Source of the DNA: Kiritimatiellia bacterium
Lineage (GTDB): Bacteria > Verrucomicrobiota > Kiritimatiellia > RFP12 > UBA1067
Assembly: GCA_050949565.1 (NCBI GenBank)
Contig: JBMNFY010000011.1
Span: 1 to 64,000, forward strand
Length of the DNA: 64,000 bases
Direction: 5' to 3'
Shown: positions 11,658 through 21,539 of the stretch, piece after piece
Layout: every line of letters starts with the position of its first letter
Numbering within the stretch: the stretch's first letter is position 1
Made by a program: the position numbers and the translations under genes
The notes under the pieces: generated by a model
Told to the model about the DNA's origin: nothing
Databases searched by the model: none
Seen by the model: the letters and a program-made list of their open reading frames with translations, nothing else

Positions 11658-11754
<97 letters not shown>

Positions 11755-14786: not shown

Positions 14787-16910
14787 ATGGTGTTTCATGA
14801 ACGGGTTTTCTGCGGGCAGGTAAGCGAGTCGGATGTTGGACAGTCGCTCCTGCTGGCTGGATGGGTCGATGCTTTCCGCGACCACGGCGGACTGCTCTTT
14901 ATCCATCTGCGCGACCGCAGCGGTATCCTCCAAGTGGTCTTCAGCCCGGAGGTCGCGCCGCCGGAGGTCTGCACGCTCGCCGCGACGTTACGCACTGAGT
15001 TCTGTATCGCGGTGCGCGGCACGCTGGTGCAGCGCCAAGCCGGTACCGAGAATCCCAACATCGAGACCGGCACCATCGAACTGATGGTCAAAGAACTGAC
15101 CGTGCTCACGGAGTCGGACACGCTGCCCTTCACCATCTCCGAAAAAGCGATGGTGGCCAGCGCGACGGCCGTCACCGACACCGTGTCCGAGGACACGCGC
15201 CTGCAATACCGCTATCTGGACTTGCGCCGTCCGTCGATGCGTGACCATCTGACGATGCGCCACCGCATCTTTCAATGCGTGCGCCGTTTTCTCGACGAGA
15301 GAGGCTTCCTCGAAATCGAAACCCCGGTGCTGACCGCCAGCACGCCCGAAGGCGCGCGCGACTATCTGGTGCCCAGCCGCGTCCATCCGAAAACCTTTTA
15401 CGCGCTACCGCAGTCGCCTCAGATTTTCAAGCAGCTCCTCATGGTGGGTGGCCTCGAACGCTACTTCCAACTCGCGCGTTGCTTCCGCGACGAAGACCTG
15501 CGCCCCAACCGCCAACCGGAGTTCACCCAGCTCGATATCGAGGCCTCGTTCATCGATGAAGAGTTTCTTTACGAGATGATTGAGGAACTGACCGTCCGGC
15601 TCTTTGCCATCGGCGGCATCACCCTGCCGCGGCCCTTCCCGCGCATGACCTATGCCGAGGCGATGGACACGACCGGCTCCGACAAGCCCGACCTGCGCTT
15701 CGGCCTGCGGTTTGTCGACGTGACCGACGTCTTCACACAGACGCGTTATGCCATCTTCCGCCAGATCCTGCAACGTGGCGGCTGCATCAAGGGCCTCAAC
15801 ATCAAAGGGCAGTCGGAAAAGCTCAGCAAAAATGTGCTGCAGAATGAGTATGCCAAAGAGATCGCGCCCTCCTTCGGTGCCAAAGGCATGACCTGGATGC
15901 GCGCGGAAAACGGCAAACTGGAATCCAACATCGTCCAGTTCTTCAGCGAGCAAGAACTGGACGAGCTGCGCCGCCGCTTTAAGGTTGAAGACGGCGACGT
16001 GCTCATCATGATCGCCGACTCCTCCGCCCGCGTGGTCGCCTCCGCACTCGGCAACCTGCGCCTGCATCTGGCGAACCGGCTGGGCTTGATTCCGCCCGAC
16101 ACCTTCTGTCCGCTCTGGGTCACCGACTTCCCGCTCTTCGAGCCGACCGACGAAGGCGGCGTAACTTCTACGCACCATCCTTTTACGGCACCGCACCGCA
16201 CCGACTTTGATCCGTCGAACGTCGATGAGCTGCTAAGTCTGCGTTCGCGCGCTTACGACCTGATCGTGAACGGCGAGGAACTGGGCGGCGGCAGCATCCG
16301 TATCCACAACCGTGCCGTGCAGCGCAAGATTTTCGCTGCGCTAGGATTGAGCGATGAAGATGTCCAGACGCGGTTTGGCTTTTTCCTGCGTGCCTTCGAT
16401 TTCGGTGCGCCGCCGCACGGCGGTCTGGCGCTGGGCATGGACCGTCTGGTCTCGATGATTCTGCAAACGCCCTCGATCCGCGAGGTGATCGCCTTCCCCA
16501 AGAACCGCAGCGCGGCCTGTCCGCTCACCGGTGCGCCTTCGACTGTGAAGCGCGAACAGCTCGCCGAGTTGAGCTTGCTCGATCTGGGCGGCGGTGGCTC
16601 CGCCGCGCTACCGGGTGCCGAGGCGCAGGAAGATCGCATCGACCGTATCTCTTGGGTCTCACGTATCGGCATCAACGAACAGGAGCGGCCAGTCATGGAA
16701 GCCGTGCTCGCGCAGGCCGAGACGCTGGCGGAGCAAGCGGCGGCACACGCCGGTACGGAAGCGCCCATCCGCTCGGTCGCGCCGGTCTCCAACCGCACCC
16801 GCCCGGGCACCGAGGCGCAGCGTTCACCCTTGGCCGAAACGGGGCAGGTCTTCAAAAACGCCCCGGCTGTAAAGGGTGCCTACTTTAAAGTCGCCAGCGT
16901 GCTGGAGTAA
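14787..16910 (+). CDS. aspS: Non-discriminating aspartyl-tRNA synthetase fused to a C-terminal GatC-like domain
   Basis: RDHGG, YRYLDLRR, PEGARDYLVPSR, QSPQ.FKQ, RCFRDED.R, GAPPHGG; then GGGGS linker and ~95 aa ending NAPAVKGAYFKVASVLE. Confidence 0.95.
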   Translation: MVFHERVFCGQVSESDVGQSLLLAGWVDAFRDHGGLLFIHLRDRSGILQVVFSPEVAPPEVCTLAATLRTEFCIAVRGTLVQRQAGTENPNIETGTIELMVKELTVLTESDTLPFTISEKAMVASATAVTDTVSEDTRLQYRYLDLRRPSMRDHLTMRHRIFQCVRRFLDERGFLEIETPVLTASTPEGARDYLVPSRVHPKTFYALPQSPQIFKQLLMVGGLERYFQLARCFRDEDLRPNRQPEFTQLDIEASFIDEEFLYEMIEELTVRLFAIGGITLPRPFPRMTYAEAMDTTGSDKPDLRFGLRFVDVTDVFTQTRYAIFRQILQRGGCIKGLNIKGQSEKLSKNVLQNEYAKEIAPSFGAKGMTWMRAENGKLESNIVQFFSEQELDELRRRFKVEDGDVLIMIADSSARVVASALGNLRLHLANRLGLIPPDTFCPLWVTDFPLFEPTDEGGVTSTHHPFTAPHRTDFDPSNVDELLSLRSRAYDLIVNGEELGGGSIRIHNRAVQRKIFAALGLSDEDVQTRFGFFLRAFDFGAPPHGGLALGMDRLVSMILQTPSIREVIAFPKNRSAACPLTGAPSTVKREQLAELSLLDLGGGGSAALPGAEAQEDRIDRISWVSRIGINEQERPVMEAVLAQAETLAEQAAAHAGTEAPIRSVAPVSNRTRPGTEAQRSPLAETGQVFKNAPAVKGAYFKVASVLE

Positions 16911-16945
16911 CCGTCGCCATCCGTCGCCAACAGAGGAAATCCGTC

Positions 16946-18142
16946 ATGTCTCCGATTTATCGTTTTGAAAATCCTGATCCCGCGTCCGCCCTTCCGGACG
17001 GTCCGCTCCACGGCATGCGCGTCGCGCTGCAATCCACGGTCTCGGTGGCCGGCTGGCCGACCGACGCCGACTCGGCGGCACTGACCGACTTCACCGCGCT
17101 TGAGGACGCGACTGTCGTGCAGCGTCTGCGTCAGGCCGGCGCCGCGTTGACCGGCCTGACACGCGCCAGCGAGTTCGGCTTCGGGCTGCACGGCAGCCAG
17201 GCCGGTGAGGCCGTCCGCAACGATGTTGCCGACGCCGAGCTGGTGCTGGATATGATGGGCGAGTGCCGCGTGGCCGCCGCGCGCGCCGGTGCCTTCGGAC
17301 TGCTACCGAGCGTCGGCCTGGTTTCACGGCTCGGCCTGATCGGCCTGATCCCTTCGATGGAGCGTTGCGGCCTACTCGCGCGTTCGTGCGACACGCTGAG
17401 TACGCTGCTCGCGGCGCTGGCCGGACCGGACGGACGCGACCTCACGCTTGAGGAAGCCCCGTTGCCGTCGCTCGCCCCGCTGCCGAAAGACGGACACGGC
17501 GTCACGCTCGGCGTGATCCCGCAGGCGCTGGAGGGACTGCCCGCCGCGCAAGCAGAGGGCTTCCGTGCCGCGCTTGATCGATTGGCCGCAGCGGGCGTCA
17601 CCGTGCGCGAGCTGCCCTTGCCGGAGTACAACTTGTTTGATTTGGTGCATGCGATCGTCGGTGCAGTGGAGGCCTCGTCCTGTGCGGGCCGTTACGATTC
17701 GGTGCGCTACGGTCACCGTCCGCCGGGCGCGAAGGATTGGAATGAGATGTATCTGAGCGCGCGCGGCGCGGCGTTCGGCACCTGCGTCAAGAGCTTTCTG
17801 GTTCAAGGCGCGTTCTTCCAGTTTGAACGCTATGCCGCGTATGAGAACGCCTGCCGCATCCGCGCGCGGCTGGTTGCGGCGGTGCAACAGCTCATGCCGC
17901 AGGTCGATGCGCTGGCGCTGCCGCTGGCCGACCGCGTGCCGGAAGGTGCGACGGCCACGCTCGCGGAAACGCGCGCGCCCTTCGCGAGCACGCTTCTGGC
18001 GTCGGTCACCGGACAGCCCGCACTGGCATTGCCTGCGGCGGGCGCGTACGGCGCACTGCAACTGGTCGGATCGCGGCTCGGCGACGCGCGATTGCTCGCA
18101 CTGGGCGGAATGCTTGCGGCGCTGTGCCGGGAGGGAAAATAA
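16946..18142 (+). CDS. gatA: GatA-like amidase-fold protein lacking the catalytic triad
   Basis: PLHG, DATVVQRL..AGA, EFGFG, GLVSRLGL, EASS..GRYD.VRYG.R; located between aspS-gatC and gatB. Confidence 0.8.
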   Translation: MSPIYRFENPDPASALPDGPLHGMRVALQSTVSVAGWPTDADSAALTDFTALEDATVVQRLRQAGAALTGLTRASEFGFGLHGSQAGEAVRNDVADAELVLDMMGECRVAAARAGAFGLLPSVGLVSRLGLIGLIPSMERCGLLARSCDTLSTLLAALAGPDGRDLTLEEAPLPSLAPLPKDGHGVTLGVIPQALEGLPAAQAEGFRAALDRLAAAGVTVRELPLPEYNLFDLVHAIVGAVEASSCAGRYDSVRYGHRPPGAKDWNEMYLSARGAAFGTCVKSFLVQGAFFQFERYAAYENACRIRARLVAAVQQLMPQVDALALPLADRVPEGATATLAETRAPFASTLLASVTGQPALALPAAGAYGALQLVGSRLGDARLLALGGMLAALCREGK

Positions 18143-18144
18143 CC

Positions 18145-19580
18145 ATGGACTTTGAAGCGGTCATCGGATTGGAAATCCACGTCGAACTCAACTGCGCCAC
18201 GAAGCTGTTTTGTGACTGCCCGAACCGGCCCGGCGATGAGCCGAACGCCAACACCTGCCCGACCTGCCTCTGGATGCCGGGCGCCGCGCCGCGCCTGAGT
18301 CAGGCGGCTTTGGAGAAGGCGGCGCTACTCTGCCTGGGGCTCGGCGCGGAGCTGCAGCCGCTGAGTGCCTTTGACCAAAAGGTCTACTACTACCCCGATC
18401 TGCCCAAAGGCTACCAGCTTTCTCAAGCGCACCTGCCGTTGTCGCGCGGCGGCAGCATCACGGTCACCAACGAACAGGGCGAGGCGCGTACGCTGCGCAT
18501 CCACCACATCCACATGGAGGAGGACGTCGCCAAGCTGGTGCATGAGTTGGAAGGCCGTCAGCCGATCAGTCTGGTCGATTTCAACCGCGCCGGCGCACCG
18601 CTGGTGGAGATCGTCACCGAGCCGGACTTCCGCACGCCGTACGAGGCGATGGAGTTTCTCAAGGCACTGCGCACGCAAGTGCGCTACGTGGGGGCTTCGG
18701 AGTGCAGTATGGAAAACGGCACCATGCGCGTCGACGCCAACATCTCGGTGCGGCCGCGCGGCACCGAGCCAGATGAACACCAAGGTCGAGGTCAAGAACA
18801 TGAACTCGGTGCGCCATGTGGGCGACGCCATCGCCTTCGAGACCGCACGGCAAAGCGCGGCGGTGCAGGCCGGTGAGACGGTGGTGCAGCACACGCGGCT
18901 GTGGGATCCGGACAAAAAGGTGACGCTGCCGATGCGCGCCAAGTTCGAAGGCCCCTGCGTGCCCGATCCCTCGGTGCCGGCGATTGAGCTGACGCCCGCG
19001 TGGATCGAGTCCTTGCGGGCGCGCCTGCCGGAGATGCCGGCCGCCAAGGCCGAACGGCTGGTTAAGGAGCATGGCATCAGCGCCGAAGATGCGGCTTTCC
19101 TGAGCGCGGATACAGATGTGGCCGACTATTTTGAGGCGTTAACCGCACAGGGCGTGACCGACCAAGATGGCCCTGCACTGGACCGCCACGCAGGTATTGC
19201 CGGCGGTCAGGGAGCGCGGCCAAGAGATCAGTGCCTGCTCCGTGACACCGGAGCGACTGGCCGGCCTGCTGACCTTGCTGGCGCGTGATGAGATCAACGC
19301 CAACGCAGCGCGCGACGTGCTCGTGGCGCTCTTCGAGAGCGATGCGTCAGCCGAAACGATCGTCAACGAACGCGGATTCAGGCAAATCTCAGACACCGGC
19401 GAACTCGGCGCATTGATCGATCAGGTGCTGGCCGCAGAGCCGGCCGCGCTGGCGGATGTCCGCAACGGCGTCGGCAAAGCGATGGGTTTCTTGATCGGCC
19501 AGGTCATGCAAGCCTCGCAAGGCAAAGCCAATCCAAAACTGATCAAAGAATTGCTAGCCAAAAAACTGAAAACTTCATAA
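18145..19580 (+). pseudogene. gatB: GatB amidotransferase subunit with two +1 frameshifts (~18769, ~19162); possible sequencing errors
   Basis: VIGLEIHVEL, YPDLPKGYQ, HMEED, DFNRAG.PL.EIVTEP, KVEVKN.NS, GFLIGQVM....GKANP spread over three consecutive frames. Confidence 0.9.
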
Positions 19581-19590
19581 ATTAGGCCTC

Positions 19591-21539
19591 ATGGCTTGCG
19601 AATCAGATGTTGACATTGCGGTTCGGGCAAGGTCGTCTTCGCAACCTATGAGATTGTTCGCACGAAACACGCAGCGTGCGATTCAGCTTGAGGCTGTTGA
19701 ACTGGCTCATTGCCCCTTCTGCAAAAATAGTACGCCGACGGCGGCGCATGCTCCGCTCTCTCGTATCGACTGCCCCATTTGCGGCAAGCAGATACTGGTG
19801 CCGGGCCGTCTGGATGTTTTTCTGCTTCACGAGCACATCGGCGAAGGCGAGATGGGATCCATCTATCGTGCGACGGACGAAACGCTGGAGCGTGAAGTAG
19901 CCATCAAGCTGATACGCATCGGCCAAGCGGACAGTCCTGAATCGCGTGAGCGGCTCAAGCGCGAAGCCTGCGCCGCCGGTAAGCTCAACCATCCCCGCGT
20001 CGCGCAAGTCTACTCGCTAAATTTTGCTGGCGACCATCCCTATCTGGTGATGGAGCTGATCGCCGGCCTTGATCTCTCGGAAAAATTCAATCGCGAAGGC
20101 CCCTTGCCTGAGCGCGCCGCTTTACGGATAGCGCTGGACATTGCCGACGGGCTTTCAGCACTGCGCCGCGAGGGGCTGGTGCATGGCGATGTCAAACCGG
20201 CCAACATCGTCCTGGACCGTGACGGTAATGCCAAGCTGGTCGATTTCGGCCTCTCCGGCATGACCCGTTACGACAGCCAAGGCCACTTTATCGGCACACC
20301 GTATTTCATTGCGCCGGAGCTGCTGCAGGGCATTGTCGACACGCACCAGAGCGACCTCTACAGTTTGGGGGCCACCCTGTATTACCTACTTTCCGGAAAG
20401 CTCACGCACGAAGGAGAGACACATACCGACATCCTGAGGGCGCGCCTGACCCAAAAACCGACGCCGATTGACAAGCTCGTCCCCCACCTTTCGCCCGCGA
20501 CATGTAGCTTGGTCATGCACTTGATCGAGTTTTCTCCCCCCAAGCGTCCGGCCAACAGCGAAATCGTGGTCGCTGAGATCCGCGAAGCGCTTGCCCTCCT
20601 GGAGAACCCGCCGAAGCCCGTCACGCCCCCGCAGCGTCGCCGCAAGCACCGTGTTTCGTCGCGGTTGAGACCGTTTCAAATGAATTGGCGTCGGACACAG
20701 ACCCGGCGGTACCGGTACCACCGCGTGTTCGTCTGGCTGTTCGTCACCGCTGCTTCTGCCGGAATCATTGCGTTCGTTACGTTTCACCCGTTATGCGAGC
20801 CGCACAGGACACACCTCCGCCAAGCCTTCGACCAGCGCGACAAGGTCGTAGAAGCTGTTTCCGTCTGGATGCAAGATGCCGTCAGCCGCATCCACTCCCC
20901 CATCGAACGCAACCAACAGCCACAGCCTCCGGTTTGCGCGTCAGACACCCCGCCGAAAGTAGCCTTCACCGCCGAGGATGGCAGAACTTGGTTCACGATG
21001 GCGTTCGGCTCGTCACCGCAAAGCGGTAGCGCGATTTACACGGGCGGCACGCTTGTCCTGCAAGGGCAAGGCACCGCGATGTGGGAGGGGCCGGACTGCT
21101 GCCGCTATGTCTGGTGCCGGGCAGTGGGCACTTATCACTTTTCCGCTTCGCTGCTGACGTATGCGGACCAAGACCCCTCGCAATGACCGGACTGATGATA
21201 AAAGACGCCAGCCCGGCACAAAGTGACGGCTTGTTTTTCGGGGTCCTGGGGTGCGGCGACCTCGTGCTCCAACTCCGTCGAGCGAATGGCGAAAGGCTTG
21301 TGCTCCGGCGCGAGTCGCAGCACGTTTCCCCGTGGCGTTATCTGGGCATCAACCGGACGGGTGACACGTTTGCGGCACACGTCTCGGAGGATGGACGGTA
21401 TTGGTCCCCCTTCATGACATGCACGCTGCCGCTCGCGAGCACCAACTCGGTTGGTTTCGTGGTCTCATCCAATTGCGCTCAAGCCCTATCAATCGCAAAG
21501 TTTACGTCTATGCGGCTGATAGAGAATCCCGCCCCTTGA
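19591..21539 (+). CDS. Zn-ribbon Ser/Thr protein kinase with TM and C-terminal beta-sandwich; frameshift at C-run ~21174-21177
   Basis: CPFC/CPIC, IGEGEMG, VAIK, HGDVKPAN, DFG, GTPYFIAPE; TM VFVWLFV...; the C-terminal domain continues as AMTGLMIK in another frame. Confidence 0.85.

Follow-up and report, generated by a model that had tools for sequence, protein, structure and literature searches.

A mobile AspRS-GatC, GatA-like and GatB cassette of anaerobic bacteria: a candidate ammonia-dependent, covalently tethered Asn-transamidosome

In every tRNA-dependent amidotransferase characterised so far, to our knowledge, the kinase subunit is coupled to GatA or GatD, a glutaminase or asparaginase. 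The non-covalent Asn-transamidosomes of Thermus thermophilus (3KFU) and Pseudomonas aeruginosa (4WJ3) contain aspartyl-tRNA synthetase (AspRS), GatC, GatA and GatB. GatC is needed for the folding of GatA and for its complex with GatB, and according to the same review, published in 2008, glutamine-independent formation of Asn-tRNA was known only via AsnA together with AsnRS (PMC2330236). The same four modules are encoded by a three-gene cassette at 14787-19580 of a 64,000-nucleotide stretch of DNA, below called the window, which comprises positions 1-64,000 of contig JBMNFY010000011.1 of a Kiritimatiellia bacterium (GCA_050949565.1). The list of open reading frames (ORFs) shows the genes aspS::gatC, gatA* and gatB tightly packed on the plus strand. 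Unlike in 3KFU and 4WJ3, GatC is here fused to the C-terminus of AspRS, the triad Lys and Ser of the GatA-like protein (GatA*) are replaced by Gln and Glu, its N-terminus and a 20-residue loop are missing, and the cassette GatB carries class-specific changes. The fusion as such is known, since it is annotated in NCBIfam as NF009460 (PRK12820), 'bifunctional aspartyl-tRNA synthetase/aspartyl/glutamyl-tRNA amidotransferase subunit C', a name that is silent on a dead GatA partner. What appears from the sequences to be new is the covalent tether combined with a glutaminase-dead A subunit in a transamidosome. No paper on an AspRS-GatC fusion or on a GatA without the triad was found in a literature search, outside of which most subscription journals and supplements fell.

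The active site of GatA* is altered at two of the three catalytic positions. Alignment with the genome's own GatA and with solved GatA structures shows that the canonical ALKD reads ALQS, replacing the triad Lys by Gln, and that DTGGSIR reads DMMGECR, with Glu in the position of the nucleophilic Ser, while the Ser aligned to the cis-Ser is retained. In the window's protein the three positions are Gln29, Ser84 and Glu106. These replacements, as well as the retention of the EASS..GRYDSVRYG motif, had been noted in the original prediction and are confirmed by the alignments. It had further stated that the loop containing GGSSGGS is deleted; in the alignments 20 residues are lost immediately before the motif, which reads GSQAGEA and includes the Ser aligned to the cis-Ser. 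The N-terminal loss had been put at about 60 residues, and this was too much. The alignments give about 40-50, residue 18 corresponding to residue 61 of Aquifex GatA and residue 19 to position 56 of TIGR00132. GatA* retains 56 of the 132 columns that are invariant across six canonical GatAs, and the lost ones include both Arg residues of VKRR (now Ser and Tyr/Phe) and one Tyr (now His). Judged by the numbering offset, one of these Arg residues and the Tyr probably correspond to Arg358 and Tyr309 of Staphylococcus aureus GatA, which the available text of the source describes as glutamine-binding (10.1101/733030). GatA* scores 144.9 bits against Pfam Amidase, where the cut-off is 27, and 182.3 bits against TIGR00132, where the cut-off of 481.1 is missed and the canonical copy on contig C7 of the same genome reaches 566.3 bits.

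The changed triad is not peculiar to the window. Of the 8000 candidates scored in a protein search with GatA*, more than 660 proved to be relatives at E<=1e-10, and the best 120 of them are almost all 396-405 amino acids (aa) long and 53-62% identical. When the window's protein was aligned with 119 of these (one 302-aa fragment was left out), the triad-Lys position was found to hold Gln in 118 of the 120 rows, the nucleophile position Glu in all 120 and the cis-Ser position Ser in 116, while Cys303 is kept in 119. Altogether 95 of the 398 positions are at least 97% conserved. The ratio of non-synonymous to synonymous substitution rates (dN/dS, Nei-Gojobori) is 0.11-0.27 for GatA* in eight of eight close pairs, 0.04-0.17 for the AspRS core and 0.04-0.10 for the N-terminal part of GatB. 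The original prediction had proposed to ask whether triad loss is conserved in homologous operons and under purifying selection, and both turned out to be the case. An AlphaFold2 model built from a 119-row alignment has a predicted local distance difference test score (pLDDT) of 90.5; an earlier model from a 15-row alignment, with a mean pLDDT of 58.5, was discarded. The top Foldseek matches of the model are GatA chains of transamidosomes with query TM-scores (TMq) of 0.86-0.89, 3KFU at 0.88-0.89 being followed by 3H0L, 4WJ3 and 2DF4; the fold is thus like that in the two non-covalent Asn-transamidosomes (0.87-0.89). The conserved loss of the triad, the dN/dS values and the confident GatA-like model together indicate that GatA* is a folded and selected GatA derivative that is unable to act as a Ser-cisSer-Lys glutaminase, and it is very probably a functional, non-glutaminase subunit of a working cassette.

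The cassette as a whole is conserved in the same way. A scan of one genome per prokaryotic species gave 207 stretches encoding GatA*, of which the best 80 were kept. These loci come from at least 11 phyla of anaerobes, with hosts among the Kiritimatiellia (the window's own group, 83-97% identical), Syntrophus, Smithella, Dehalococcoidia, Acidobacteriota, Planctomycetota, Verrucomicrobiota, Actinomycetota and others. The original prediction had mentioned long AspRS paralogs in anaerobic Deltaproteobacteria, and these do exist in Syntrophus and Smithella. The AspRS::GatC fusion is found directly upstream of gatA* in 64 of 64 loci with room for it and gatB directly downstream in 70 of 70, typically with spacers of 14 and 2 nucleotides (nt) or with overlapping genes. 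In 75 of 75 loci the fusion forms a single open frame. An uninterrupted gatB is present in 71 of 72, the exception being L091 (L091:8203-9494), from one 'Deltaproteobacteria' metagenome-assembled genome (MAG), with a frame change in the middle part and about 40 residues missing. Across phyla the AspRS core is 75-83% and the N-terminal part of GatB 82-88% identical. In a comparison that included four usable canonical rows, the cassette AspRS copies are 78-85% identical across phyla, whereas the hosts' own AspRS proteins are 39-60% identical among themselves and 39-49% identical to those of the cassette. In a FastTree tree of the concatenated cassette proteins (58 rows) the internal branches are short and the phyla are mixed, with 19 label changes against a minimum of 10. 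Phylum counts are unreliable for some 'Deltaproteobacteria bacterium' MAGs, which are labelled Myxococcota and cluster with Syntrophaceae/Smithella. The mixing of phyla on the tree, together with AspRS identities above those of the hosts' own enzymes, is read as repeated horizontal transfer among anaerobes that share habitats such as digesters, sludge, landfill and sediments. The cassette was found in sequencing runs of metagenomes from bioreactors, digesters, sludge, landfill and biogas, which belong to 17 studies.

The fusion ORF (14787-16910) encodes 707 aa, of which the last ~109 make up the linker and the GatC-like tail. By score its AspRS part is of the ordinary bacterial type, with 705.5 bits against TIGR00459 (aspS_bact; cut-off 373.85), and the whole fusion matches positions 18-723 of the 723 of NF009460 with 1306.3 bits, the curated cut-off being 1379. 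In the Asp/Asn ligases of P. aeruginosa, Mycobacterium smegmatis and Helicobacter pylori (structures 4WJ3_M, 4O2D, 4RMF, 5W25 and 5GRO), the residues aligned to the RDHGG His and the QAGT Gly are likewise His and Gly, and the anticodon-binding domain of the cassette AspRS aligns with 4WJ3_M including both residues. We take His and Gly in this domain to mark non-discriminating enzymes, and the assignment of the two residues given in the original prediction holds against the solved ligases. A GGGGS linker and a GatC-like tail had been described as well. The linker is present as LGGGGS, and the tail does match GatC, although weakly; it scores 17.5 bits (E 0.0047) against Pfam GatC (PF02686), missing the gathering cut-off of 23 bits, while GatC is hit at E<=1 by all of the 16 homologous tails, at best with 1.6e-8. 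Aligned by hhalign, the tail is colinear with the genome's own GatC over 74 columns, but again the match is weak (E 0.008, probability 4.8%), and a scan of the whole genome with PF02686 gave only the canonical gatC. In the cassette AspRS, the hinge that joins the anticodon-binding domain to the catalytic core contains a conserved insertion (EKAMVA...SED) of about 11 residues. It is found at 15130-15190 of the window (residues ~115-135) and also in L042, L047, L085 and L097, while the canonical AspRS paralogs of the same genomes are without it.

The third gene starts 2 nt past the GatA* stop codon, and in the window GatB is split over three frames (18145-18768, 18770-19150 and 19152-19580), a feature that was absent from the original prediction. 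The pieces match TIGR00133 with 267.5, 97.5 and 89.5 bits, as well as Pfam GatB_N and GatB_Yqey, and the intact cassette GatBs of five of five other genomes score 470-492 bits, above the TIGR00133 cut-off of 314.8. Compared with three Kiritimatiellia relatives (L025, L026 and L028), the window's gatB has single extra bases at 18766 and 19158. In four of four public runs, which come from four studies and comprise three runs of DNA and one of an RNA library, contigs almost identical to the window omit one base at 18766/18768 and one at 19158/19161. Since the extra bases are absent both from the relatives and from these contigs, the frameshifts are errors of the assembly or, at most, peculiar to this strain, and the gatB of the population is intact. 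Measured against relatives, the GatB pieces of the window display dN/dS values of 0.07-0.17. The two extra bases are found in a similar context (GCACCGAGCC and TGACCGACCA, both with ACCGA), where the relatives read AGC-AG and T-CGGC, and this may reflect a systematic consensus error of the assembly.

All of 15 cassette GatBs share the residues E10, H12, E125, E126, E155, T158, N199 and S201, and matching by motif suggests that they are the ATP/Mg-binding set listed in the available part of PMC4027206. A SMENG segment of the same length as the canonical NMEEG is found at the position of the 3_10 turn of S. aureus GatB. The class-specific changes at positions that are invariant in canonical GatBs comprise HAQL to HVEL (Q14E), RKNY to QKVY, NMEEG to SMENG and KE.A.DYRYFPEPD to KFEG---PCVPDPS. 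They are located at residues 14, 78, 80, 188-191 and 267-272 in the GatB of L026 (L026:3377-4798), corresponding to about 18184, 18376-18384, 18706-18717 and 18945-18960 in the window. When the two subunits are considered together, the changes in GatA* and GatB seem to have arisen in concert around the path of the nitrogen.

The genome containing the cassette (4.66 Mb, 92% complete) also carries the canonical genes that the original prediction had proposed to look for elsewhere in it: gatC-gatA-gatB on contig C7, a 607-aa aspS on contig C8, and asnS, together with glnS and an asnB-type synthetase, the last three all above their cut-offs. At this completeness asnA was not found. In five other cassette genomes, GatA* (156-180 bits) is accompanied by canonical copies of GatA (606-649 bits) and of GatB (563-633 bits). 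AsnRS scores above the cut-off in one of these five and AsnB in one, and four have neither. Because AsnRS and AsnB mostly fall below the cut-offs, most hosts depend on the tRNA route for asparagine, but since canonical GatA and GatB are also present they do not depend on the cassette alone. The genome's single tRNA-Asn(GUU) has the pair U1-A72, and G73; the available text of PMC2811023 describes U1-A72 as the pair recognised by bacterial GatB via the 3_10 turn. No unusual tRNA was seen among the 51 tRNAs found in the genome.

We consider that there is about an even chance that the cassette encodes a tethered Asn-transamidosome yielding Asn-tRNA-Asn, with GatA* as a structural subunit and with free ammonia as the nitrogen that GatB uses for amidation. 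The AspRS part would then charge tRNA-Asn with aspartate, and the covalent GatC-like tail would hold the GatA*-GatB amidotransferase on the synthetase. GatB would phosphorylate the aspartyl side chain and then amidate it to asparagine. With its GatA fold but no glutamine hydrolysis, GatA* would support GatB structurally and perhaps also form the entrance to the ammonia tunnel, and the source of nitrogen would be free ammonia or ammonium and not glutamine. The formation of the complex, for which strict synteny and spacers of 2-14 nt are the evidence, the use of tRNA-Asn as substrate and ammonia as donor are here inferred from the sequences. The original prediction was likewise of a hard-wired complex with GatA as scaffold and with GatB using free ammonia or another amine. 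This interpretation is partly supported, and all of its computable predictions held. The habitats of the runs with the cassette fit ammonia-rich settings, which is circumstantial.

Several observations weigh against this reading. Both the fusion (NF009460) and its own GatC tail (Pfam GatC) fall slightly below the curated cut-offs, and the His typical of non-discriminating enzymes is also present in four of four usable canonical AspRS paralogs (a fifth row was the wrong ORF and was dropped), so it is not distinctive for the cassette AspRS. The cassette is redundant in that canonical GatA and GatB are found in six of six genomes examined, and with AsnRS, GlnRS and AsnB all encoded in the window's genome a role in Asn-tRNA formation is not forced. 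The cassette GatB differs from canonical GatBs at 35 of 120 canonical-invariant columns; R78Q and N80V flank a conserved Lys and a 3-residue deletion removes the DYRYF motif, so that chemistry or substrate handling may differ. Ammonia is proposed as donor solely by elimination, no alternative route being apparent, the link between habitat and ammonia is circumstantial, and the near-invariance of Gln29 and Glu106 would suit a new role for this site no less well than an inert scaffold. A predicted complex of GatB 1-300 and the GatC tail with GatA* as partner scored 0.93, and a control in which GatB was replaced scored 0.86; this weighs neither way.

A different possibility, improbable in our view, is that GatA* is still an enzyme, in which Glu106, Ser84, Gln29 and perhaps the conserved Cys residues form a new site that releases ammonia from a donor other than glutamine, or binds and delivers another small nitrogen compound, and so feeds GatB via the tunnel. 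The replacement residues are indeed conserved like catalytic ones, the longest conserved block of GatA* surrounds the former substrate site and the dN/dS of the protein is well below 1. However, structure and family searches gave no amidase-signature enzyme with Glu in place of the nucleophilic Ser, the oxyanion and Gly-Ser loop is largely deleted, and the canonical Arg and Tyr that bind the amino acid are lost. The residue beside Glu106 varies (Ser in 103, Cys in 10, Gly in 3, Thr in 2 and Ala in 1 of 120) and therefore cannot be a displaced nucleophile. It is more doubtful that the product is something other than Asn-tRNA-Asn, either because a nucleophile other than ammonia attacks the activated Asp or because another tRNA is used, giving a non-standard aminoacyl-tRNA for translation or for another pathway. 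In favour of such a product are the many changed columns of GatB, including the residues flanking the Lys and the deleted DYRYF, the hinge insertion of the AspRS that is missing from its canonical paralogs, the redundancy of the cassette with complete canonical routes, and the unusual constraint across phyla on both AspRS and GatB. On the other hand, no dedicated tRNA is consistently present beside the cassette in the 60 loci scanned, the tRNAs of the genome are ordinary, and no conserved gene accompanies the cassette, the maximum being a neighbour common to 7 of the 80 loci. In addition, the ATP/Mg residues and the 3_10-turn segment of GatB are kept, and the AspRS scores as an ordinary bacterial one. 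A more novel reading, unlikely in our view, is that the invariant Gln29/Ser84/Glu106 site and the co-changed GatB pocket (R78Q, N80V and the lost DYRYF) constitute a new nitrogen-delivery chemistry with another donor or nucleophile, possibly giving a non-standard aminoacyl-tRNA, on a translation module that moves between phyla.

The chemistry might also be the ordinary ammonia-dependent formation of Asn-tRNA while the purpose differs, the cassette being a mobile bypass insensitive to inhibitors or toxins of AspRS and GatCAB, or a module for particular nitrogen regimes. We hold this to be improbable as well. The cassette is additional to canonical genes in all six genomes and has moved between phyla, as seen from the label changes on the tree and from the AspRS identities, and a GatA-like toxin that engages GatB and GatC does exist in Tse8, according to the available text of 10.1101/733030. 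However, the conserved surroundings of the cassette contain no gene for a toxin, for immunity or for a mobile element, and with neither AsnRS nor AsnB above the cut-off in four of the five other genomes, a housekeeping role in Asn supply is equally plausible there. That the cassette is a decaying, functionless duplicate of aspS-gatCAB has next to no probability left. GatB is in three frames as assembled and only one of the three triad residues remains in GatA*, but the extra gatB bases are found neither in three relatives nor in the contigs of the four runs, dN/dS is 0.04-0.27 for all parts with the window's GatB pieces included, and the 207 GatA* stretches from species-representative genomes share the same substitutions and strict synteny. 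For the family this reading is refuted and was rejected.

The features of the locus are collected in Table 1. An Rfam scan gave only the tRNA and no leader RNA, and promoter and terminator scans gave only background levels. Parts of the stretch are contained in six metatranscriptome runs (four studies), and a single RNA-library contig covers the whole of 14787-19580; this is at most a hint and does not show transcription. The tRNA-Ser(GCU) is the only tRNA of the window. It is overlapped by a listed 964-aa ORF from 11706, and the large repeat-rich, probably secreted protein that this ORF encodes (to ~14600) must start later. The Ser/Thr protein kinase gene directly downstream of gatB is kept in L025 and L026 (65-67% identity), the only close Kiritimatiellia/Verrucomicrobia relatives with contig past gatB, and gave no tblastn match in other loci among the matches listed. 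The kinase is therefore a lineage neighbour and lies outside the cassette. The recurrent neighbours in other loci belong to no Pfam family, or are a sigma-54 activator or a DNA glycosylase, and were treated as chance. A sigma-54-dependent response regulator with NtrC-like domains is found in 6 of the 80 loci from several phyla (L035, L039, L042, L073, L090 and L102), at places that range between 1.8 kb upstream and 4.5 kb downstream of the cassette with a median of ~2.4 kb downstream, but this is a very common family and it may be there by chance. One further locus, L024, is a 1608-bp contig labelled as a Hyphomicrobiales MAG in which GatA* is 97% and the GatC tail and the start of GatB each 98% identical to those of the window; this contig was probably binned wrongly and belongs to the same Kiritimatiellia population.

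Table 1. Features of the cassette and its nearest neighbours in the window.
Feature	Position	Strand	Remarks
tRNA-Ser(GCU)	11658..11751		
AspRS core of the fusion	14787..16580	+	OB anticodon-binding domain, class II core, GAD insertion; Pfam tRNA-synt_2, GAD, tRNA_anti-codon
Gly-rich linker and GatC-like tail	16581..16910	+	In frame with AspRS; stop codon included
GatA*, amidase fold	16946..18142	+	398 aa; Pfam Amidase; TIGR00132 match below cut-off
GatB, kinase/transamidase subunit	18145..19580	+	TIGR00133 pieces in three frames
Ser/Thr protein kinase	19591..21186		Pkinase, 158 bits

If the reading as an ammonia-dependent tethered Asn-transamidosome is correct, the cassette would represent the first glutamine-independent indirect route, the first covalently tethered transamidosome and a clear case of a pseudoenzyme kept as a subunit. 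It would further imply that the decoding of asparagine is uncoupled from the glutamine pool in energy-limited anaerobes of ammonia-rich habitats. The distribution also means that a three-gene piece of the core translation machinery can spread over at least 11 phyla. Syntrophus buswellii DM-2 (L042) is a cultured host of the cassette with a complete genome, in which neither AsnRS nor AsnB scores above the cut-off.

Apart from the non-covalent Asn-transamidosomes, parts of the proposed system have counterparts elsewhere. The AtzE-AtzG 'vestigial' complex (6C62 and 6C6G) is among the fold matches of GatA* with TMq 0.74-0.75. The GatA-like AtzE is said to pair with a small GatC-like partner, but reportedly it is an active amidase of s-triazine catabolism that works with neither GatB nor tRNA. 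A gatC-gatA fusion polypeptide in M. smegmatis indicates that GatC can work when covalently joined to another subunit of the transamidosome; as presented in the available part of the paper, GatC is there joined to GatA and not to AspRS, and the fusion comes from a laboratory screen and causes mistranslation (PMC7541841). The NAD synthetases are an ATP-dependent amidating family with both glutaminase-fused members that use glutamine and single-domain members that use free ammonia, according to the part of PMC3376133 that is available. Their fold and substrate are unrelated to those of the cassette, and in the ammonia users the glutaminase unit is absent and not kept in a dead form.

Among proteins with a GatA-like fold, the type VI secretion system effector Tse8 of P. 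aeruginosa is described in the available text as lacking glutamine amidase activity and as binding GatB and GatC, where it probably takes the position of GatA (10.1101/733030). In Tse8 the triad is kept and the substrate-binding residues are lost, and Tse8 is a toxin that blocks the transamidosome (10.1101/733030) and not a co-evolved subunit encoded between aspS::gatC and gatB. The yeast mitochondrial GatFAB differs from the cassette in that its variants are laboratory mutants of a glutamine user with Glu-tRNA-Gln as substrate, with the triad kept and with no fusion to a synthetase (available sections of PMC4027206). GatFAB is nevertheless able to transamidate with NH4Cl, and truncations of the N-terminal domain of GatF that disturb the glutaminase site of GatA raise this activity, so that the compromised enzymes use NH4Cl better than the full-length one does (PMC4027206). 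These GatFAB truncations are the best experimental precedent for the mechanism proposed here, in which a GatA without glutaminase activity would support amidation by GatB with free ammonia.

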